26,618 nt of DNA. Source: a virus. Lineage: Duplodnaviria > Heunggongvirae > Uroviricota > Caudoviricetes. Made by a program: the position numbers and the translations under genes. The stretch is from positions 1-26,618 of IMG/VR virus record IMGVR_UViG_2695420596_000006; one strand, given 5' to 3'. Shown piece by piece: positions 10,360 to 21,770 of the stretch; within the stretch, counting starts at the first letter, position 1, and each line of letters opens with the position of its first letter. Under the pieces are notes generated by a model. That model had not been told where the DNA came from. It worked only from the letters and a program-made list of their open reading frames with translations, and did not search any database.

Positions 10360-11379
10360 ATGACCATCAGAAAACAGCCGAACGGAAAATGGTTGTGTGA
10401 GTGCTATCCCAATGGACGCAATGGTAAGCGCGTGCGTAAGCAATTTGCTACCAAAGGCGAAGCTATTGCATTTGAAAGCTTCACAATGGAAGAAGTGAAC
10501 AAAAAACCATGGCTGGGGGAAAAGGAAGATCGGCGACATTTATCAGAATTAATTGAGCTGTGGTATTCCCTGTATGGTCAAACACTCACAGACCCCAAGC
10601 GCCTCATGGCGAAACTTAGTATTATCTGTAATGGTCTAGGCGATCCCATCGCTTCAGAACTGACAGCCGGTGACTTTACGAAATACCGCGAAGCACGGTT
10701 AAAAGGTGAAGTACGAAATGAAGATGGCACGCTTATGTCGCCCGTTAAGCCCCGCACGGTAAACCTTGAACAGCGCAATCTATCATCTGTTTTTGGTACA
10801 CTGAAAAAGCTGGGCCACTGGTCAGCCCCCAACCCGCTTGCCGGGCTGCCAACATTTAAAATTGCTGAGAGTGAATTGGCGTTCCTGACCCCGGAAGAAA
10901 TTAAACGTCTGCTGGATGCCTGTGCTGATTCTCAAAGCTCTAGTCTGCTGACGGTTGCAAAAATATGTCTGGCCACCGGCGCGAGATGGAGTGAAGCCGA
11001 AAACCTGCAGGGCCATCAATTGTCAAAATACCGGATCACCTACACCAAAACTAAAGGCAAGAAAAACCGAACCGTACCGATATCTCAGGAGCTATATGAA
11101 GAACTCCCCAAAAACAGAGGGAAACTATTCACGCCCTGCAGAAAAGCTTTTGAGCGCGCAGTAAAACGAGCCGGTATAGACCTGCCTGAAGGCCAGTGCA
11201 CACACGTGTTGCGCCATACATTCGCCAGTCACTTCATGATGAATGGCGGAAACATATTGGTACTACGCGATATTCTTGGTCACTCTGATATAAAAATGAC
11301 GATGGTTTATGCTCATTTTTCGCCAGATCATTTAGAAGATGCTGTAACAAAAAATCCACTGGCTATGTTGGGATACTGA
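10360..11379 (+). CDS. int: Tyrosine integrase, P2/186 type
   Basis: 339-aa ORF; C-terminal catalytic region HVLRHTFASHFMMNGGNILVLRDILGHSDIKMTMVYAHF contains the R...H-x-x-R...Y tyrosine-recombinase signature; starts 4 nt after the cI stop. Confidence 0.9.
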   Translation: MTIRKQPNGKWLCECYPNGRNGKRVRKQFATKGEAIAFESFTMEEVNKKPWLGEKEDRRHLSELIELWYSLYGQTLTDPKRLMAKLSIICNGLGDPIASELTAGDFTKYREARLKGEVRNEDGTLMSPVKPRTVNLEQRNLSSVFGTLKKLGHWSAPNPLAGLPTFKIAESELAFLTPEEIKRLLDACADSQSSSLLTVAKICLATGARWSEAENLQGHQLSKYRITYTKTKGKKNRTVPISQELYEELPKNRGKLFTPCRKAFERAVKRAGIDLPEGQCTHVLRHTFASHFMMNGGNILVLRDILGHSDIKMTMVYAHFSPDHLEDAVTKNPLAMLGY

Positions 11380-11381
11380 TA

Positions 11382-12413
11382 ATGGAAAAAAGCATTAGCA
11401 CATTTATGTACCTATCCGTTTTATTAGGTTGTATATTCTTATTTATAAAATATCGACTTTATGTTCTCGATCATAGAAGCTTGTTCCAACAACCCTTGTT
11501 CTGGGCTGCAATAGGCCTACCTTTATTCACCAGCCTTTACTTTGGTTCTTTTGTCTGGATAGATAAAATACACTCTTTTAGTCTTACAAGTCACGGTTAT
11601 GAGAGATTTTTAGATATCTCGAAATTACCATTACTCATCCTTGCATCTGCAGTACCTTTAGTTTCAATAGTAAACAACCTACACAGAACCAAACAAACAG
11701 AAAAACAGATCTCAGAGGCAGAAAGGAAAAACAGGGTAGATTTATATTACAACCACATGAAATTTCATCTTGATTTATATAAAAAAATCGAAGGAAAAAG
11801 AATAGGCAGCTACTACCCGGTTCAGGAAGCTCAAGCTGAAGCAATCTACCAACATTTTATAAAACATCCACAAGAACTATATAGAAAAGCATACCCACAA
11901 TCTACGCCTGATGATTCTCAACAATTAGATATTAATGAGCAATTTGTTATTGATTTACACAAATGTTGGGTAGAAATCAACGCAAGACTCAAGCAATTAT
12001 CCGAGAGTGAAAATCAAATACATCCTACAGAGGAACTTTGCACAACAAAGATGAGAATATTTGTAGGCGTTATGATTATTTATGAAAAAACTTGTAAACT
12101 GTTGTGTTTAGGTGGATTTCATTATAAAAAGTCATTTGTAATAAATGATAGTTATAATAAATACCAAGTTTATTCACCATTTTATGATTTTGGCACTCTG
12201 TACGAATCACTGCAATCCTTAGAAGAGATAACCTACGCCTTCTTGGATACTTGCAGAAATGAAGTGGTAAACTTGTACTTCCCTATAGAAGATAAAATTT
12301 TGATATATGGTGAAGGGATTCTAGAGAATTGGTTCAAGTATTCTCAGTTCTTGATCACTATAGCTTATCAACCCGCCAAGATGTCTCGCTTACCCCAGCT
12401 GAGACGCGATTGA
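11382..12413 (+). CDS. Hypothetical membrane-anchored protein (343 aa), moron gene between int and att
   Basis: ATG 2 nt after the int stop (TGA-TA-ATG); three hydrophobic segments in the first ~100 residues then a ~240-residue soluble domain with no motif assigned; visibly more AT-rich than neighbouring phage genes. Confidence 0.65.
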   Translation: MEKSISTFMYLSVLLGCIFLFIKYRLYVLDHRSLFQQPLFWAAIGLPLFTSLYFGSFVWIDKIHSFSLTSHGYERFLDISKLPLLILASAVPLVSIVNNLHRTKQTEKQISEAERKNRVDLYYNHMKFHLDLYKKIEGKRIGSYYPVQEAQAEAIYQHFIKHPQELYRKAYPQSTPDDSQQLDINEQFVIDLHKCWVEINARLKQLSESENQIHPTEELCTTKMRIFVGVMIIYEKTCKLLCLGGFHYKKSFVINDSYNKYQVYSPFYDFGTLYESLQSLEEITYAFLDTCRNEVVNLYFPIEDKILIYGEGILENWFKYSQFLITIAYQPAKMSRLPQLRRD

Positions 12414-12740: not shown

Positions 12741-13970
12741 ATGGCAAAAATCGCTAAGAAGCTCACTGACACTGAAATCAAAAGCACCAAACCTGCCGAG
12801 AAAGAGGTTAACCTTTTTGACGGCGATGGTTTGCTCCTGCGAATCGCCCCCTTAGCGAAGGGAGGAAAGAAAAATTGGTATTTCAGATATGCAGTGCCTG
12901 TGACCAAAAAGCGAACTAAGGTGAGCTTAGGAACCTATCCTCACCTTACACTTGCGAAGGCACGAGCTTTACGTGATGAGTACTTGTCGTTGCTTGCAAA
13001 TGGTATAGACCCACAAGTTCATAACACCCACAAAGCCAATGCCCTTAAGGATGCAACGGAACATACATTTCAAGCAGTAGCCAAGAAGTGGCTTGATGAG
13101 AAAGTCAAAACGTCAGGCATCTCCCAGGATCATGCTAACGACATCTGGCGAAGCCTAGAGAGAAATATCTTTCCAACGTTGGGTGATACCCCCATTAAGG
13201 AGATTCGCCCTAAAATGCTTAAACAGCATTTAGACCCCATAGAAAAACGAGGTGTCCTTGAAACACTTCGCCGCGTCATATCCCGCCTGAATGAAATTTT
13301 CCGCTATGCAGCAACAGAAGAACTCATAGAATTCAATCCGGCTGACAACCTGGGGCAACGGTTCAGCAAGCCAAAAAAACAGAATATGCCAGCATTACCC
13401 CCTTCCGAACTCCCCCGCTTCCTGGTTGCTCTAAACAATGCTTCTATCCGTTTAGAAACAAGGCTACTGATTGAGTGGCAACTTCTCACATGGGTTCGCC
13501 CTGGTGAAGCTGTTCGCACAAGATGGTCAGATATTGATATAGAAACCAGCATGTGGAACATCCCGGCGGAGTTTATGAAAATGAAGAAGCCTCACAAAGT
13601 TCCACTGAGCAAAGAATCTTTGCGAGTCTTGGATTCAATGAAAGCCATCAGCGGGCATAGAGAGTGGGTTTTTCCCAGTATCAAAGCTCCACTCAATCAC
13701 ATGCATGAACAAACAGCTAATGCGGCTATAATCCGTATGGGCTTCGGAGGTGAGCTTGTAGCTCATGGTATGCGATCAATCGCTAGAACGGCGGCTGAGG
13801 AGTGTGGCAAGTTTAGAACTGATGTCTTAGAAGCCGCCCTTGCCCACTCGAAAAAAGATGAAATAATTGCAGCCTACAATCGTGCAGAGTATCTCACAGA
13901 ACGTGTGGTTCTCATGCAATGGTGGAGTGACTATGTTTCGTCTCAAAAATACAAAGTTATTGCCGCATAA
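12741..13970 (+). CDS. int: Tyrosine integrase, P4/CP4-57 type
   Basis: Start at MAKIAKKLTDTEIKSTKP (ORF track begins further upstream at 12597, inside the terminator); N-terminal arm-binding pattern and C-terminal H-x-x-R ... Y region (HGMRSIARTAAEE ... IIAAYNRAEYLTER). Confidence 0.88.
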   Translation: MAKIAKKLTDTEIKSTKPAEKEVNLFDGDGLLLRIAPLAKGGKKNWYFRYAVPVTKKRTKVSLGTYPHLTLAKARALRDEYLSLLANGIDPQVHNTHKANALKDATEHTFQAVAKKWLDEKVKTSGISQDHANDIWRSLERNIFPTLGDTPIKEIRPKMLKQHLDPIEKRGVLETLRRVISRLNEIFRYAATEELIEFNPADNLGQRFSKPKKQNMPALPPSELPRFLVALNNASIRLETRLLIEWQLLTWVRPGEAVRTRWSDIDIETSMWNIPAEFMKMKKPHKVPLSKESLRVLDSMKAISGHREWVFPSIKAPLNHMHEQTANAAIIRMGFGGELVAHGMRSIARTAAEECGKFRTDVLEAALAHSKKDEIIAAYNRAEYLTERVVLMQWWSDYVSSQKYKVIAA

Positions 13971-14252
13971 CTCTTCCATGATGGGTTAACTATCTTGATT
14001 TATTTGAAGAATTAATGATCACACCATTAACCTATGTGGACTAAGCATAGCCATTTACAAATGGGTACCTTGAGGCCAAATAACGAAAGCTGTCGGTCAT
14101 ATCAGCTAAATAATTCACATCTCTTCTCGATTATCATACACCTCGAAGAACTACCAAATTCGCTCTAATCAATGATAAAACAGTTGAATTCGGTTAAAAT
14201 TTGATCAATTTTATCCTCTACATTGTATTGAATCATCCATGAGGTTTTGTGC

Positions 14253-15809
14253 ATGGCTAGCGGAAATGAAAAAAATCATAGAGTTAGGGTCGCACAGTAC
14301 TTGAGGATGTCTACCGACCATCAGCAATATTCTTTACATAATCAGTCTGAATATATCAAAGATTATGCTGAAAAGAACAATATGGAAATCGCTTATACCT
14401 ACGATGATGCAGGTAAGAGCGGAGTCAGTATCGTAGGCAGGCATTCTTTGCAGCAGTTACTTAGCGATGTAGAACAAAAGAAAATAGATATACAGGCTGT
14501 ATTATTTTATGATGTGAGCCGTTTTGGTCGTTTTCAAAATAGTGATGAAGCTGCATATTATTCCTTTCTATTTGAAAGAAATGGTGTAGATCTTATATAT
14601 TGTTCCGAACCTATACCCACTAAAGATTTCCCTTTAGAGTCCTCTGTTATACTGAATATAAAAAGATCAAGTGCTGCATATCACAGCAGGAATCTATCTG
14701 AAAAGGTATTTATAGGGCAAGTAAATTTAATAAAGCTTGGTTATCATCAAGGCGGTATGGCTGGTTATGGGCTGAGACGTCTTTTAGTAGACGAAAATGG
14801 CATAGCTAAAGAAATATTGAATTTCCGCAAAAGAAAGAGTATTCAAACAGATAGGGTAATATTAATTCCGGGACCAAAAAATGAAATAAAAATTGTAAAT
14901 AGAATCTATGATCTCTTTATAGATAGTAACGTCCCAGAATTCATTATTGCTGAGAGATTAAATGAACAGAGCATACCTGCAGAAAATGGAACATCATGGA
15001 CTCGTGCAAAAATACATCAAATTTTGACAAATGAAAAATATATTGGAAACAACATATATAACAAAACCTCATCTAAACTAAAAAGTAAGCTTGTAAAAAA
15101 CCCCAAACATGAATGGATTAGATGTGACAAGGCATATAAACCAATTATTTCAAAGAAAAAATATAATAAAGCTCAAGAAATAATTCAGCTCCGATCCATT
15201 CATTTGACTAATGAAGATCTATTAGAAAAGCTAAAAGAAAAATTAGAATCTAATGGAAAACTATCAGGCTTTATCATTGATGAAGATGATACAGGCCCTT
15301 CATCTTCTGTTTATAGAACCCGATTTGGTGGTCTTTTAAGAGCATATACTTTGATTGGTTATAAGCCAGAACATGATTACAGCTATCTCCAAATAAATGA
15401 AGCACTAAGATCATTTTACTCAGAGATAATTGAGGATTTTAAGGGCGAAATATTAAAAAGTAACTGTCATATAGACGAGTATAAATATTACCCAATGCTT
15501 TACATCAATGATGAGTTTTTAATTTCCGTCCTTGTTACTAAATGCATACATATGAAATCAGGTAAACTTAGATGGAAAGTCCGGTTTGATAACTCACAGA
15601 AAGCAGACATAACAATTGTTATACGAATGAATTCACAAAATATTTCACCTCTTGATTTTTATATCATACCAAAGATTGAAAACGAATATAGTAAAATGTG
15701 TATGATGGAAACAAACAACATTCGGTTAGATCTCTATAGATTTGATAATCTTGATAAATTTCTACAAATTATTACTCGCATGAAAGTGAGGGAACTATAT
15801 GCTGCCTGA
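14253..15809 (+). CDS. Large serine recombinase (resolvase/invertase catalytic domain plus recombinase domain)
   Basis: Start at ATG with GAGG 8 nt upstream; N-terminal VAQYLRMSTDHQQ...GKSG...VLFYDVSRFGRF is the serine-recombinase catalytic pattern; 518 aa; strongly AT-rich. Confidence 0.8.
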   Translation: MASGNEKNHRVRVAQYLRMSTDHQQYSLHNQSEYIKDYAEKNNMEIAYTYDDAGKSGVSIVGRHSLQQLLSDVEQKKIDIQAVLFYDVSRFGRFQNSDEAAYYSFLFERNGVDLIYCSEPIPTKDFPLESSVILNIKRSSAAYHSRNLSEKVFIGQVNLIKLGYHQGGMAGYGLRRLLVDENGIAKEILNFRKRKSIQTDRVILIPGPKNEIKIVNRIYDLFIDSNVPEFIIAERLNEQSIPAENGTSWTRAKIHQILTNEKYIGNNIYNKTSSKLKSKLVKNPKHEWIRCDKAYKPIISKKKYNKAQEIIQLRSIHLTNEDLLEKLKEKLESNGKLSGFIIDEDDTGPSSSVYRTRFGGLLRAYTLIGYKPEHDYSYLQINEALRSFYSEIIEDFKGEILKSNCHIDEYKYYPMLYINDEFLISVLVTKCIHMKSGKLRWKVRFDNSQKADITIVIRMNSQNISPLDFYIIPKIENEYSKMCMMETNNIRLDLYRFDNLDKFLQIITRMKVRELYAA

Positions 15810-16695
15810 AAAAAATGAATTCCCAATAATTCAAATTGAGATTGCAAAAATAAAATTTCTTAACCCACGAACAAGAAATAAGGTAGTGCATGAAGAAATA
15901 AAGGAAAGCATAAAAAAAAGAGGATTAAGCAAGCCTATAAGCGTAAGAGCTATTGATGAAGACGATTTCAAATATGCTTTAATTTGTGGTCAAGGGAGAA
16001 TAGAGGCTCTTGTTGCATTAGGTGAAACTATTATTCCAGCAATTATAAGAGATGTATCAGAAGAAGATGCTTACGTTATGAGTTTAGTTGAAAACATTGC
16101 AAGGAGAAGACCACGTTCTAATGAGTTATTACAGGTGATTAAAGACATGAAAATCAGAGGACTTTCAGACTCCGAAATAAGTGAGATTACTGGATATTCA
16201 TCGAACTGGGTGAGCAGTATTAATATGCTTCTTGATAAGGGAGAGCATAAACTTCTCTCAGCAGTCGAACGGGGTAATTTGCCTCTGTATCTCGCAGTGC
16301 AATTTGCAAGATGTGAAACTGAGGAAGCACAAGATATTCTTACCGAAGCATATGATAAAAAATTAATAAAAAGTCGGGACATTATAAAGATAAAATACAT
16401 TCTAAATCAAAGAACAGTTGGAAATAAAGGTGCAAAAGCAGCCGGATTTTATTATCACAAACCATCAAAAAGGATGACTGCAGAGGAGTTGATTGAGCTT
16501 TATGAAAATAGTATCGCTGAACATAAATCTGTTTATAACAACTCGAAATTTATAAAAACCAATCTACTAATAATAAATGAGATTTTTAACATCATAATGA
16601 TGAATAAAAGCTTTCAAAATATACTTGAACAAGAGAATCTTTCAGAACTACCATCTCAGATATTAAACCCAGTAAACAAAGAGGTATCAAAATGA
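15799..16695 (+). CDS. ParB/Srx-like N-terminal domain protein (298 aa)
   Basis: Overlaps the recombinase stop by 11 nt; N-terminal IQIEIAKIKFLNPRTRN...SIKKRGLSKPISVRAID...YALICGQGRIEALVALGETIIPAIIRDVSEEDAYVMSLVENIARR matches the ParB N-terminal domain pattern including the G-x-x-R box. Confidence 0.75.
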   Translation: MLPEKNEFPIIQIEIAKIKFLNPRTRNKVVHEEIKESIKKRGLSKPISVRAIDEDDFKYALICGQGRIEALVALGETIIPAIIRDVSEEDAYVMSLVENIARRRPRSNELLQVIKDMKIRGLSDSEISEITGYSSNWVSSINMLLDKGEHKLLSAVERGNLPLYLAVQFARCETEEAQDILTEAYDKKLIKSRDIIKIKYILNQRTVGNKGAKAAGFYYHKPSKRMTAEELIELYENSIAEHKSVYNNSKFIKTNLLIINEIFNIIMMNKSFQNILEQENLSELPSQILNPVNKEVSK

Positions 16696-17588
16696 TTCAG
16701 ATACGTTTTGGCAAAAATTTTATTTACCTGGAAACTAATAAGTTAATTCCATCTAAGGAATTATTAGAAAACGTAAAGCGAAGCCATAAATATCATCAAA
16801 TAGTTACCTCTATCGAAAGCTTGGGTATTATTGAACCAATAATAGTATTCTATGACAAAGATAAAGATGTCACTAAGATACTTGATGGCCATTTAAGGGT
16901 TGAGGCTTTAAAAGACTTAGATATAGAAAAAGCTCCATGTATACTTTCGAGCATAGATGATGCTTTCACTCCTAACAAACAAGTGAATCATATAAATGTA
17001 GTTGAAGAACATAGAATGATAATTAAGTCTCTGGCAAAAGTATCAATTGAAAAACTTAGTGCTGCTTTGGGCATATCTGTTGATGCCATAAAAGATAAAG
17101 CTAATGTGATGAACGGCATAGATCCAAGTGTAATTGCGAAACTTTCTGATAAACCTATACCTAAGGCTACATTTGACGTTTTGAGGAAAATGAAGCCAAT
17201 TCGTCAAATTGAAGCAGTCGGTACAATGATTAATTTTGATAATTATAGTAAAAAATTTGCAATGAGCATCTTGGATGCAACACCGTCATCGATGATAGTA
17301 AATAAAGGGAAAAACACTCCCTATAAAAAGGACATAAAAAAAACCATACTTCGTCTGGAACAAGAAATGGCAACAACTTCGGAAGAAACGAAAAAACTTC
17401 AAACCGAGTATGGTTCAGATATGTTGAAATTCGTTATAATCCAGTCATATATTAATAAATTACTTGGCAACTCTAAAGTTCTTCATTGGTTCTTAGAAAA
17501 CGAGGTTGATTATCTTAATGAGTTAAAAAGAATTTCTAGAATAAATTCTTTGGATGATAAGACTCTTACTGAAAACAGCCAGTCATAG
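16692..17588 (+). CDS. Second ParB/Srx-like domain protein (298 aa)
   Basis: Start overlaps the previous stop (ATGA); N-terminal ...HKYHQIVTSIESLGIIEPIIVFYDKDKDVTKILDGHLRVEALKDL... resembles a ParB-like domain. Confidence 0.65.
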   Translation: MIQIRFGKNFIYLETNKLIPSKELLENVKRSHKYHQIVTSIESLGIIEPIIVFYDKDKDVTKILDGHLRVEALKDLDIEKAPCILSSIDDAFTPNKQVNHINVVEEHRMIIKSLAKVSIEKLSAALGISVDAIKDKANVMNGIDPSVIAKLSDKPIPKATFDVLRKMKPIRQIEAVGTMINFDNYSKKFAMSILDATPSSMIVNKGKNTPYKKDIKKTILRLEQEMATTSEETKKLQTEYGSDMLKFVIIQSYINKLLGNSKVLHWFLENEVDYLNELKRISRINSLDDKTLTENSQS

Positions 17589-18241
17589 TCATGGTTTTAT
17601 ATAGCCTAAATAAACCAAGAAGTATACTTACACAACGACCTTCACGCCGAAGAAGCTGTCAGATACGCCAGCAACCAAAGCATTGCGTTTAAGAGTCAGT
17701 CATTGATACGAAGGGATAACTGCGTATCAGCAGCCGGACATTGAGTCGAATAAAGGCTGGTAGAGAGGGACAGTTCTGTGTCACCGGGAGATTAGTCAGA
17801 AACATCAGCGGCAGAACAGATGAACCAGCAATTGGTAGTGTACAGAAAACTCTCCAGTATATAATTATTCAACTTAACACTAAAAAAAATCACATAGTTA
17901 ATATCATAATTTTTCTTTGGTCTACTTATGCGAGAGATATTGTGGCTTCAACCTGGTATTAGGAGTCGTTTCAGATAAAAGATGTTCTTCGATTCGACTG
18001 GACTTGGTAATAGCAATAAGTAATCGTGAATATTGAAGGACGAAAGGCTACTTCAAAACAAAGTAACCTTTCCAATATTCCCATATATGGGACAAGTGGC
18101 ACATTAACTGCACATAGTGCAGGATACATATGACATAAAACTTTTTATTTATGGCATACATTAAGAATAACTTTTATTTTACGAATGTCAATAGGCTCTT
18201 GCTTAATACTTTTAAAATAATTAATTGATTTTTTATTATAG

Positions 18242-18640: not shown

Positions 18641-19546
18641 TTATTTAGATGCTAAAATAGTATTTTTATTGAATTTTTCATCAGCATCTGTAAGCTTTTT
18701 CATTATTAAAGCAGGGGCTATATCCTGAAGCTCCGTAGATTTTATGAAAAAATAATTACAAAGGTAAATTATATTATTAAGATTAATTGGTATATCAATA
18801 TTATAATCTAACATTAACGATAACAAACGATCTCTGTCAATTCTATAAAACTTTTTACCAAGCTCTTTCTCATTAATTATTGAAATTATCTTTTCATCAA
18901 GCTTATCGTCCATTCTCAATCTTAATTTATTTCTTAGCATAGCGGACCATGCGCTTGACTTATAATTTCTATATGCTAAATCCTCAAATAACTTCATTAT
19001 TCCCCAATCAGATGTTTCCAAAGAGGCGTAAATTCCATTCAGCGCGCGACTAAGGTCATTATGCTCAACCCAATCCTCTTTGCACTTATAGCGTAGATCA
19101 TGCTCAACTTCATGCCATCCTTCAGATAAAATAGTTCTAAATTGGACTTCAAAAGTAGTATCAATATAAGAATATTTCTTTAATAAGACACTATCATTTG
19201 ATAATACTTCTGGTAACTTAAAGACGTAATTGCATCGAGTTGCCGCAAAGAGATTAGCCGTGGTTTCGTCTACGGTTTTAGATTCAATTTCGAATAATTT
19301 CTCCAGTGTTTTTTGAGCAATAAATAAATCATCAGGAAAATATAATATTATCCTAACCCCAAATAAGTCTTGAATTTTTTTACCATCCTCTGAGTATTTA
19401 TTAGGCTCTTTTTCATATTTCTTAATTATTGAGCTTTCTGATTTTGTCCTCGAAAAAAAACGATAAAGTAATCCAATACGATTAAGTTCATCTTCTATAT
19501 CTTTTTGCAAACTTTGAATAATTCGCAATTCATTCCCGTTATACAT
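18641..19546 (-). CDS. RelA/SpoT-homologue (RSH) nucleotidyltransferase-fold protein, toxSAS-like (301 aa)
   Basis: Start ATG overlaps the upstream stop (ATGA); contains DLFGVRIILYFPDD and EVQFRTILSEGWHEVEHDLRYK, matching the synthetase-domain motifs D-x-x-G-x-R and E-x-Q-x-R-T...W-x-E...H-x-x-x-Y-K; C-terminal ~140 residues unassigned. Confidence 0.8.
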   Translation of the reverse strand: MYNGNELRIIQSLQKDIEDELNRIGLLYRFFSRTKSESSIIKKYEKEPNKYSEDGKKIQDLFGVRIILYFPDDLFIAQKTLEKLFEIESKTVDETTANLFAATRCNYVFKLPEVLSNDSVLLKKYSYIDTTFEVQFRTILSEGWHEVEHDLRYKCKEDWVEHNDLSRALNGIYASLETSDWGIMKLFEDLAYRNYKSSAWSAMLRNKLRLRMDDKLDEKIISIINEKELGKKFYRIDRDRLLSLMLDYNIDIPINLNNIIYLCNYFFIKSTELQDIAPALIMKKLTDADEKFNKNTILASK

Positions 19547-21651
19547 CAGAAATTCCTCCCAAGAATTGCTTTAATCTCTGATATTCTTGCCATGTTAAGT
19601 TCAAGGAACGAACGCTTGTCTGGCGTAAGTAAAAGACCGTCTTTCCTCAATTTATCTAAAGAATGGAGTATTTCACTTAACTGAAATTGATTGTTGTTAG
19701 AACATAAGCCTTTTATAGGCCGATGCTTATGATAGCTAACACTCCCTCTGGGACAGAACTTCTCTAAGATGTAAATATCACAATCTGTAATATCGTGATC
19801 ATTTTCACTGTTTATCTCGACAGATTTTTTATTAATAGCATCATTGTCACATTCACATCCCAAAAAATAAATATCTTCCCTACCACTTAATTCGTTAAAA
19901 CTACAATCTATAAAAGAACAGTTCACGAATGTAACGTTTTTATAATTACCACAGGTAAATATGCTGCTAAAAAACGAACAATCAACAAAGATAGTATCAT
20001 GTATTATATTTATATCGCCTAAAGAAAGTTTTGATATAGACAATTGCTCAACACTATCATTTTTTAAATCTAATGGAACTTTTCCTATAAGCAAATGACT
20101 ATAAAGGATTTTATCATTACCTGACATAAAATATAAAGCAAACTCTAAGCTATGCCAAAGTAATTCTTTTTCATCATCGATCCTCGGCATATAAGATTGC
20201 ACTGCTGGTTCTATAAAACGTTTATCACCAATCCATTCATTTGACTTATCATTAATAATATTTTCAGAAACAAAATTACCAAGAACAAATTCATTAACAA
20301 ATCCAATACCTTGGTTTTCTGAGCCTGACCGATCTAATAGAGCATGCGATGCTAATTTATTAACTAATTCGTCAGTAGTTGGTCTTTCATCTACAGTATA
20401 AAGCTTTCTTGTAGCCTCCAAGAGTTGTTGATTCTTTTCAGTTATGACTAACGATATATACTCTCTAGACTCAGATGTGTAGTTACCCTCGACCATGTCG
20501 TCAGCTATTATTTTTAGTATAGTATATTGATCTTCAATAGACATTAATAAATCTTGTCTTTTTCTTTCTCGCTCAAGCATTGAATCAAAATACTTCCTCA
20601 CTATAGTTGTTGGGTCGCTTATAACTTTATTAAAGTCGGTGTCGTCGATGCATCTTAGAAATGATAGCAGTACAGGGTTTGATAATTTGTTAAGAGGAAA
20701 TCCTGTCGATGAAATTTCATCTAAACGTTGACCTGGAAGCCAGTCTTCAATTTGTGGTTCATGAATTCTTATTCTTATCACATCAAAATCTTCTTGATGT
20801 GATGCTATCCACTGATGGAATTCATCTCCGTCAAATATAGCTGTTCTTCGAGTTGTCAAAACCACTTTTGCACTATCAGTTAGAAGCTCACTTATTGTTT
20901 CCAGCATTGGCTCTGTTTTTTCATAATTATTTTCAATTCCGTTTGTACTTTCATGCAATAGTTCATCAAACCCGTCAAGTATAACTGGTACATTTCCTGC
21001 TCTTATTTCATTCCTTACTAAGGCTGAGCTTAACAAAGGAAAACTTCTATCAATTTCATCTAATAGTACATACCTGAATATTTTTGCTTGCCTATTCCTT
21101 GATAGTTCTGAAAATAATGGTATTTTCCCTATATTGTTAACTATAATCTCCCTCAATAATTCATACGCCGTGCAAGTCTTTCCAAAACCGGCTGCAGCCT
21201 CAATCAAAAACAGAATTGGACGCCTATGTTGTATTCTCTCTAATATTTCCGTAACAACATTAGCTTCGCCAATAACACCATTTAAGTAATATTTTGAATT
21301 TATGTAGGAATAAGTTGCAGTAGGTGAGTGAATTTTTACAATTGAATCTGTGAAAGTATTATAATCTTTAATCAACCTTTCTTTAGTTGAATCGACGCTA
21401 AAGAAGCCATTAAATAATTCCTTATGTGCTTCTTCATAAGACTGATATTTTTTAATTTGACATGCATAACCTAACTGCCTATATTCTTCAAAGGTTTGAT
21501 TTACATTAACCTCATTATTTAGTGGAAGTATGTCCGCGTTATGGTAGTGCCCTGTTTTAATAGAATATACAGCAATACTTTCGTTACCTGTATTTTCTTC
21601 AGTAAAACCAAACCTTTTATATATCTCTGTAAGTTTGCTTTTTCGTAACAT
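19546..21651 (-). CDS. NACHT-type STAND NTPase with C-terminal pentapeptide-like repeats (about 701 aa)
   Basis: Start at ATG preceded by AGGAGG (ORF track adds 3 codons from a GTG); Walker A LIEAAAGFGKT and Walker B VPVILDGFDELLHE (h-h-h-h-D-G-h-D-E, NACHT-typical); C-terminal FVDCS/FFSSI/FTCGN/YKNVT/FVNCS/FIDCS/FNELS five-residue periodicity; N-terminal ~130 aa unassigned. Confidence 0.8.
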   Translation of the reverse strand: MLRKSKLTEIYKRFGFTEENTGNESIAVYSIKTGHYHNADILPLNNEVNVNQTFEEYRQLGYACQIKKYQSYEEAHKELFNGFFSVDSTKERLIKDYNTFTDSIVKIHSPTATYSYINSKYYLNGVIGEANVVTEILERIQHRRPILFLIEAAAGFGKTCTAYELLREIIVNNIGKIPLFSELSRNRQAKIFRYVLLDEIDRSFPLLSSALVRNEIRAGNVPVILDGFDELLHESTNGIENNYEKTEPMLETISELLTDSAKVVLTTRRTAIFDGDEFHQWIASHQEDFDVIRIRIHEPQIEDWLPGQRLDEISSTGFPLNKLSNPVLLSFLRCIDDTDFNKVISDPTTIVRKYFDSMLERERKRQDLLMSIEDQYTILKIIADDMVEGNYTSESREYISLVITEKNQQLLEATRKLYTVDERPTTDELVNKLASHALLDRSGSENQGIGFVNEFVLGNFVSENIINDKSNEWIGDKRFIEPAVQSYMPRIDDEKELLWHSLEFALYFMSGNDKILYSHLLIGKVPLDLKNDSVEQLSISKLSLGDINIIHDTIFVDCSFFSSIFTCGNYKNVTFVNCSFIDCSFNELSGREDIYFLGCECDNDAINKKSVEINSENDHDITDCDIYILEKFCPRGSVSYHKHRPIKGLCSNNNQFQLSEILHSLDKLRKDGLLLTPDKRSFLELNMARISEIKAILGRNF

Positions 21652-21770
21652 TAAACTCACCTCCTGATATTTTTCGCAATGATGCTATAGTCGCTGTATG
21701 AACTTTTAATATAATATTACAAAAACCATCTACATAGCTACCGCCTAAGCAATAATAGCTATGTAGAGAT
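21652..21770 (-). promoter_or_regulatory. Putative promoter/operator of the NACHT-RSH operon
   Basis: AT-rich upstream region; perfect 11-bp inverted repeat CTACATAGCTA-N15-TAGCTATGTAG at 21730..21766. Confidence 0.35.

Follow-up and report, generated by a model that had tools for sequence, protein, structure and literature searches.

A serine recombinase gene coupled to two ParB-like genes as horizontally transferred cargo of an ssrA-integrated mobilizable island of Escherichia coli

A stretch of 26,618 nucleotides of DNA filed as a viral record (IMG/VR IMGVR_UViG_2695420596_000006, positions 1 to 26,618; hereafter the window) is E. coli chromosome and begins with smpB and the transfer-messenger RNA (tmRNA) gene ssrA, that is, at the smpB-ssrA hotspot. 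The tmRNA hotspot is a documented site of defence islands in E. coli (PMC10121019). Within the window, a gene for a serine recombinase is followed by two genes for ParB-like proteins, designated here ParB-like A and ParB-like B. This three-gene operon (the triad), which together with its short flanks forms a cassette, is the subject of the present analysis. The triad and the features that adjoin it are as follows.

13971-14252, plus strand: upstream noncoding leader of 282 bp, a presumed promoter region with the GAGG ribosome-binding site
14253-15809, plus strand: serine recombinase gene, 518 amino acids (aa); Pfam Resolvase and Recombinase domains
15799-16695, plus strand: ParB-like A gene, 298 aa; Pfam ParB_N (1.6e-13) and RepB (PF07506)
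16692-17588, plus strand: ParB-like B gene, 298 aa; Pfam RepB (5e-24), with a weak ParB_N match
17589-17636, plus strand: short 3' tail, common to all enterobacterial versions of the cassette, past which the lineages differ
About 17630-17780: remnant of an IS3-family (ISKpn34-like) transposase, directly 3' of the triad tail

The three open reading frames (ORFs), described in the original prediction as 518, 298 and 298 aa long and chained by their stops and starts, were confirmed by ORF reading, with an 11-nt overlap between the recombinase and ParB-like A genes and an ATGA overlap between the two ParB-like genes. The recombinase ATG is preceded by its GAGG ribosome-binding site at 8 nt. NCBIfam agreed with Pfam on the triad, none of the three proteins falling in a named equivalog. 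The leader is conserved along with the triad in E. coli, Enterobacter, and Salmonella, as well as in a second E. coli island context (locus L086); it contains no divergent regulator gene, in contrast to many distant cassettes. Promoter and terminator scans of the E. coli cassette gave matches at background level, not above chance, and the internal repeats of this AT-rich cassette also appear to be chance matches. Homology of the window with the L086 and E. coli H6 lineages stops at 17636-17639, and the IS3-family remnant, which is kept in the BL21, Enterobacter, and Salmonella versions, marks the point at which the H6 lineage diverges.

The GC content of the triad is 0.30-0.33, against 0.46 for the integrase gene just 5' of it, and the cargo genes adjoining the triad are as AT-rich as the triad itself. 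Separate acquisition, which had been suggested from the AT bias, is sustained by this composition, by a sister island that carries the Gabija system and no triad, and by the occurrence of cassettes in unrelated elements of other phyla. Between the window and the H6 lineage, the ratio of nonsynonymous to synonymous substitution rates (dN/dS) is highest for the recombinase (0.12), followed by ParB-like B (0.07) and ParB-like A (0.05). These values point to strong purifying selection, and the triad genes are for this reason regarded as functional. With high confidence, the triad can be described as a three-gene operon that is complete in itself, has been transferred horizontally, and belongs to the accessory cargo in the variable portion of a mobilizable island integrated at ssrA. 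With equally high confidence, it is not a partition system and not the machinery by which the island integrates.

One genome of each species was scanned, which yielded at least 597 cassette loci (one per species); 80 of them were kept, with the triad complete in 68. The 80 loci span Alpha-, Beta-, and Gammaproteobacteria, Acidobacteria, Planctomycetes, Bdellovibrionota, and other groups. The order recombinase, ParB-like A, ParB-like B occurs in every one of them that is long enough, and the genes mostly overlap or abut; the arrangement is far beyond chance and, because the order is kept throughout, the triad is considered a coherent functional unit. Its only recurrent partner is a small divergent gene directly 5' (21 of the 68 complete loci), or alternatively a small gene for a zinc-finger or winged-helix protein. 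The larger neighbours are highly variable and include chromosomal genes, integrases, methylases, SNF2 helicases (SNF2/DrmD-like genes), HipA, WYL, AbiEii-like ATPases, and, at some loci, pAgo-SIR2 and PD-Lambda-2. In an 11.3-kb tRNA-Ala island delimited by a perfect 49-bp repeat and equipped with its own tyrosine integrase and an AlpA-like gene, the triad adjoins HEPN/MNT genes, and a metagenomic island holds a tyrosine integrase, an excisionase, the triad, and HigBA together. Plasmid pAtC58 of Agrobacterium fabrum C58 carries a four-gene version between AbiEi/AbiEii and Fic genes, with a restriction enzyme nearby.

Homologues of ParB-like B were found in 103 of 72,556 plasmids (0.14%), mostly rhizobial megaplasmids, very large and rich in islands, and in a single phage record out of 50,697. 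The 2.9 million viral contigs of IMG/VR gave 48 matches, many of them at the edges of predicted proviruses and upstream of tail-fibre, primase, and methylase genes. In the proviruses of L229, L230, L235, L236, L253, L258, L259, L264, and L266, ParB-like B often lies no more than a few tens of bases from the predicted boundary. Tail and tail-fibre genes directly 3' of ParB-like B in such proviruses place the triad at the ends of prophages in several lineages. No description of the triad was found in literature searches, which included protein accessions and the Atu locus tag, and the fixed combination of a recombinase with two ParB-like proteins appears to be unstudied.

In E. coli, the triad is present in 655 of 5,426 complete genomes (12%), in one copy each and never on a plasmid; a close variant of the neighbouring integrase occurs in about the same number of genomes. 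The island of the window is a mobilizable, ssrA-integrated element with a P4-type tyrosine integrase on its left and a relaxase backbone on its right.

12741-13970: P4-type integrase (NF007246), directly 5' of the triad leader
25359 onwards: relaxase, right-hand backbone of the island

In BL21 and other E. coli B strains (L002, 10489-16432), the integrase and an intact triad are followed by IS1, the remainder of the island being deleted up to glaH in an IS1-associated manner; this arrangement is a natural minimal context of the triad. Another E. coli hit, H99, had been considered as a boundary marker and was set aside as the product of an IS1-mediated deletion. The same ssrA-integrase-triad arrangement is found at 98% identity in Enterobacter and Salmonella, and the DNA shared by these genera and the window reaches about 18390. 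The cargo that follows the triad differs:

This window: RelA/SpoT-like and NACHT genes
E. coli H6: DUF6119 and HxsABCD genes
Enterobacter: genes for a UvrA-like ATPase and ThiF
Salmonella: HNH_5 and DUF5677 genes

A sister island in E. coli CT01 has an integrase 84% identical to that of the window and identical relaxase-side backbone proteins, with Gabija right after the integrase and no triad; likeness of the window to this island ends at 13936. The triad is therefore dispensable for the island family, and its slot otherwise holds a defence system. In the second E. coli context (L086), the triad lies several genes from a different integrase, among RloB/AAA_15 genes, and adjoins mlaA and a formate/nitrite-transporter gene (yfdC-like); this is probably the argW site. 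Since a fragment of the ssrA-type integrase travels with it, the L086 piece was evidently transplanted from an H6-type island. A DUF6119/TIGR04141 gene and the HxsABCD radical S-adenosylmethionine system (L003:15833-20856; L086-L095) accompany the triad into both E. coli islands, at ssrA and at the probable argW site.

The catalytic domain of the recombinase comprises residues 14-152 (PF00239, 7.6e-22), and 32 diverse homologues all share Y16, R18, the catalytic serine S20, D87, R90, and R93. It is followed by the domain named Recombinase (DBD1), at residues 210-312 (PF07508, 5.3e-22). The structure superposes on that of SprA over about 300 residues, and structural matches to large serine recombinases reach only to about residue 325. 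Beyond this point, the model predicts a family-specific C-terminal module, helical at about 320-402 and then rich in beta strands at about 407-485. A search for a zinc ribbon or coiled coil in this part of the protein, advised in the original prediction, found neither in Pfam, in the model, or in the structure matches, and conserved cysteine pairs are also absent. Sequence and model together indicate a large-serine-integrase core in which a different C-terminal module replaces the zinc ribbon and coiled coil. In large serine integrases, which are in use as genome-engineering tools, the zinc-ribbon/coiled-coil module normally reads the att sites and sets directionality. The triad enzyme differs from the known large serine recombinases (SprA of SPbeta, Bxb1, PhiC31, TP901-1, A118, CcrA/B, TnpX) in lacking this module, in the constant translational coupling of its gene to two ParB-type genes, and in that no att sites were identified for it. 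Its family consists of proteins of about 500-540 aa that align over their full length, C-terminus included, at 33-46% identity, and comprises 1,351 clusters at E values of 1e-30 or better. Serine-transposase elements of the IS607 or Tn4451-like kind are a poor comparison: the IS607 model scored 36.6 against a cutoff of 110, and the E. coli triad occupies one place per genome and no plasmid.

The assignment of both 298-aa proteins to the ParB-like group held up in Pfam searches, in the alignment of ParB-like A, and in the predicted fold of ParB-like B. ParB-like A scores above the cutoff of TIGR00180 and aligns with Spo0J, ParB, and Noc through the helix-turn-helix (HTH). Its motifs are nearly invariant across 77 orthologues (box I, LNPR; box II, CGQGR, containing GxxR; box III, VENxARR) and are followed by the HTH and then a RepB-type C-terminus. 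By these motifs, ParB-like A is a canonical ParB/RepB-type protein that has kept the motifs for binding cytidine triphosphate (CTP). ParB-like B, whose ParB_N match is below the gathering score, has lost box III (ENxxR), and D-G-H-x-R, T-Y-N-K, and Q-E-H are invariant across its 70 orthologues. Its AlphaFold model (predicted local distance difference test score 74.5) best matches CTP-bound ParB (7bnr, 1e-9), followed by Noc and KorB, over about 200 residues. The GxxR residues, flagged earlier as worth checking, are conserved among the orthologues of both proteins. Of the features of ParABS-type ParB, namely a CTP-binding N-domain with GxxR and ENxxR and an HTH, ParB-like A thus has all and ParB-like B has part. 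Although equal in length, the two are not near-duplicates; they are distant paralogues with 30% identity across 63 residues. The scores of both against TIGR03454 (repABC RepB) are far under its cutoff.

Clamps of the ParB-CTP type have recently come to light as a class of molecular switches. Compared with ParB/Spo0J, Noc, KorB of RK2, BisD of ICEclc, and RepB, ParB-like A has the full set of CTP motifs, an HTH, and a RepB-type C-terminus, and ParB-like B is predicted to share the two-domain fold, but the latter has a DGHxR motif and no box III. As with KorB, BisD, and Noc, their job is evidently other than classical ParA-driven segregation. Unlike the known clamps, the triad proteins are two ancient paralogues that are always paired and coupled to a recombinase, without a ParA or KorA-type partner and without a recognisable parS. 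The DGHxR motif of ParB-like B is reminiscent of the D-G-Q-[HQ]-R motif of DGQHR/DUF262-type proteins (DndB and the N-domains of GmrSD/SspE). These ParB/Srx-fold proteins belong to DNA-modification and restriction systems and are also found in defence islands, but ParB-like B differs from them in keeping ParB-type DNA-binding and RepB-type C-terminal domains and in having ParB, Noc, and KorB as its structural neighbours.

Some alphaproteobacterial cassettes carry additional elements. A conserved element of about 115 nt lies 0-95 nt 3' of ParB-like B, on the same strand, in 41 alphaproteobacterial loci, all outside the window:

L018:5405-5533, RNA element
L064:5394-5520, RNA element
L007:11343-11460, RNA element
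38 further loci (alignment A3)

The predicted structure has 26 base pairs, nine of them with compensatory changes, and 97.9% of the alignment cells are paired, compared with 25-41% in slid controls. Cells in which both positions have changed number 54, against about 15 in shuffled alignments, and none of 500 shuffles reached the observed value; the G-U pairs fit the triad strand only. Rfam 15 gave no match, either at the gathering threshold or at permissive ones. Of 75 informative metagenomic occurrences of the RNA core, 70 lie directly 3' of a ParB-like B gene. Five orphan copies in metagenomes (L112, L121, L145, L150, L171) are without a triad gene. A covariance-model search did not find the element in the E. 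coli window, in pAtC58, or in non-alphaproteobacterial cassettes. The element is a structured RNA with strong covariation support and a lineage-specific accessory of the cassette. In Ruegeria conchae, two direct copies of the 197-bp region that contains the RNA, 87% identical (L011:11342-11537 and L011:16376-16571), bracket a 1162-aa phospholipase D-type nuclease/helicase gene and a 291-aa gene, the sole such case among 39 loci. Cassettes of the Rhodobacterales type also have two 14-bp palindromes, GGCACA-NN-TGTGCC, in tandem with a spacing of 21 bp; they lie in the region of the divergent promoter, about 180-250 bp 5' of the recombinase start (L017, L018, L037, L058, L064, L068, L081, L082, L084, and others); in six loci, a third copy lies about 260 bp further 5', near the left edge of the cassette. 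The palindromes occur upstream of Rhodobacterales cassettes only and are absent from E. coli. They are probably operators of the divergent regulator or loading sites for the ParB-like proteins.

It must be asked what such a cassette does. A partition, silencing, or multimer-resolution role for a plasmid-like replicon, exercised without ParA, might be proposed from the RepB (PF07506) C-terminal domain of repABC plasmids in both ParB-like proteins and from their homologues on rhizobial and Agrobacterium megaplasmids, yet it is very improbable. The lack of a ParA gene alongside the triad, already remarked in the original prediction, extends to the whole window, where the KGGxGK[ST] motif of the ParA-type deviant Walker A does not occur and the NACHT protein has the only Walker A of any sizeable ORF; the recurrent neighbours of the 68 loci include no ParA family either. 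Neither repA nor repC adjoins any cassette examined, the cassettes share no parS-like palindrome, and on pAtC58 the AbiE, Fic, and restriction genes that surround the cassette are away from the replication/partition locus. Every E. coli carrier has it on the chromosome, and the few plasmids that have it are mostly very large. Because of this lack of ParA, the chromosomal position, the rarity on plasmids, and the position on pAtC58, partition and plasmid-resolution roles were rejected, and the earlier statement that this is no canonical partition operon stands. In concept, the triad resembles Tn3/gamma-delta res, Sin with HU, the RK2 parCBA multimer resolution system (mrs), and Xer with ArgR/PepA, where additional DNA-binding proteins set the site choice or topology of a recombinase, but those systems employ small resolvases or tyrosine recombinases at defined res, cer, or psi sites on plasmids and transposons, whereas the triad is chromosomal island cargo. 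The ParB of RK2 is an unrelated nuclease. Self-mobility, the first of the two alternatives offered in the original prediction, is not supported either. A nested mini element of about 3.7-4 kb, inserting itself through its serine recombinase into other elements, for example at the 3' end of an integrase gene, would agree with the presence of cassettes in many unrelated elements and with the finding that related cassettes in different contexts share only the triad and short flanks, from about 300-500 bp upstream to about 0-220 bp downstream. These limits match the ends of the functional unit, whose two borders are formed by a divergent regulator gene and a terminator-like hairpin. Moreover, the final 244 bp of the integrase gene occur twice in the H6 and L086 lineage, in copies about 80% identical that lie on either side of the triad; the second copy (L003:15452-15695; L086:13452-13695, equivalent to window 13746-13989) is degenerate, with mutated catalytic-region residues and, in L086, a stop codon. 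The integrase alleles, however, are mosaics in which identity shows no step at 13746. Copy 1, copy 2, and the triad-less allele lie at equal distances from one another (82-84%), so that copy 2 is equally well a remnant of a tandem island. With no empty site found in the 5,426 E. coli genomes either, the idea that the cassette had entered the integrase gene and brought a surrogate 3' end along was discarded as unsupported, and L086, being transplanted, provides no independent evidence for it. Flanking direct repeats were present at 3 of the 68 loci only, none attributable to the triad recombinase, and taking them for att sites failed: they are IS21 fragments, the ends of a tRNA-Ser island, and repeats of about 94 bp beside an Xer-like gene. 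Two of the carrying islands clearly possess a tyrosine integrase of their own. Finally, the breakpoints after the triad (17636, 17932, and about 18390) do not coincide, and the cassette is found once per genome and on no E. coli plasmid. A mini element of this kind is accordingly improbable. Two related candidates were also dismissed: an integron-like capture site after ParB-like B, to which the variable cargo 3' of the triad and the 197-bp repeats of L011 had pointed, in view of the scattered breakpoints and a duplication in just 1 of 39 RNA-bearing loci, and a phase-variation (invertase) role, since the 655 E. coli copies are single collinear matches with no inversion polymorphism.

The second alternative, a DNA-targeting or defence module, fits the genomic context best. 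We tentatively favour, at somewhat less than even chances, a triad that acts as a ParB-clamp-assisted recombinase and serves as conflict or defence-type cargo against invading or competing DNA (phage, plasmid, or rival element), with no housekeeping role for its carrier. In such a mechanism, the two ParB paralogues would form a nucleotide-dependent DNA clamp or DNA-loading complex, possibly as an asymmetric heterodimer, as suggested by the retention of CTP motifs and HTH in ParB-like A and of GxxR together with its own DGHxR, TYNK, and QEH motifs in ParB-like B. The complex would recognise or mark a DNA molecule and position or license the serine recombinase, which would then make covalent double-strand cuts or carry out strand exchange on the marked DNA. 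The protein sequences suggest a recombinase that may have lost its own att-reading and directionality module and be licensed by a DNA-marking ParB-type clamp instead. A more specific version, in which a heteromeric ParB-type CTP clamp loads on foreign or competing DNA and delivers a recombinase without zinc ribbon that breaks or scrambles it, with the structured RNA as cofactor or regulator in Alphaproteobacteria, is rather doubtful. The conflict or defence role fits the patchy single-copy spread, the AT-richness, and the position as cargo in diverse integrative elements, as well as the toxin-antitoxin and defence neighbours, the Gabija slot in the sister island, and the purifying selection. 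Several observations weigh against it. The defence association of the neighbours is moderate and stands without a comparison to background; PADLOC-DB v2 has no match to the recombinase or ParB-like A, and ParB-like B matches only weakly the ParB domain of a methylase model. No parS-like or att-like site common to the cassettes was found. In the enterobacterial islands, the integrase, the triad, and about 800 bp form a conserved left arm beyond which the cargo varies, as would a piece of backbone. The triad is also intact in E. coli B/BL21, the classical permissive host of T phages, so any protection must be narrow or aimed at other invaders; no serine recombinase is known to us to act as a defence effector. 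The main rival, possible but on balance unlikely, is a life-cycle module, in which a ParB-guided recombinase integrates, excises, or resolves the carrier element in the manner of an additional integrase or resolvase, with the ParB-like proteins acting as directionality or accessory factors or as KorB/BisD-like regulators. A serine recombinase with such an architecture normally works as an integrase, resolvase, or transposase, as the structural matches reflect, and the triad adjoins a tyrosine integrase in the enterobacterial islands, with the conserved left arm counting on this side as well. It lies at the tail-fibre (moron) end of predicted proviruses, the usual place of attP and int, and many distant cassettes have a small divergent regulator with tandem palindromic operators, as in a lysogeny switch. 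The recombination directionality factors of large serine recombinases are structurally diverse, which also counts for this rival, but none described in the study concerned is ParB-like (PMC12286644). Against it, sister islands of the same backbone manage without the triad, tRNA-flanked islands with a triad have their own tyrosine integrase and excisionase, no att-like repeats that bracket the carrier implicate the serine enzyme, and the triad is nearly absent from sequenced phage genomes and small plasmids.

All components of the triad come from intensively studied families, and their combination is undescribed in the literature found. Should the recombinase be targeted or licensed by the ParB pair, this would be a new way of controlling site choice and directionality without the zinc-ribbon/coiled-coil module and a new function for clamps of the ParB type; a cassette that proved to be a defence or anti-plasmid system would represent a new effector chemistry. 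With its spread over at least 597 species, its strong purifying selection, and its presence in E. coli BL21/B and A. fabrum C58, its role is directly testable.

The remaining features of the window belong to the hotspot and to the cargo of the island:

10360-11379: integrase of a P2-like prophage remnant, which follows smpB and ssrA and has this integrase of its own
11382-12413: AT-rich ORF of 343 aa that follows immediately on the integrase of the P2-like prophage; hydrophobic segments are predicted at its N-terminus
18641-21660, minus strand: RelA/SpoT-like protein (301 aa) and NACHT protein (704 aa)
Between the NACHT pair and the relaxase: DUF4928 fragments and an ankyrin protein

The 704-aa NACHT protein has an NA-iREase2 N-terminus and a pentapeptide-repeat C-terminus, and with the RelA/SpoT-like protein it makes up a defence-type pair resembling nucleotide-binding leucine-rich repeat (NLR) systems, for which PADLOC and NCBIfam matches are weak. 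The 343-aa ORF has no match in Pfam, NCBIfam, or PADLOC; it may be a P2 hotspot cargo gene, since the same position in another strain (L001) is occupied by an anti-phage dCTP deaminase.

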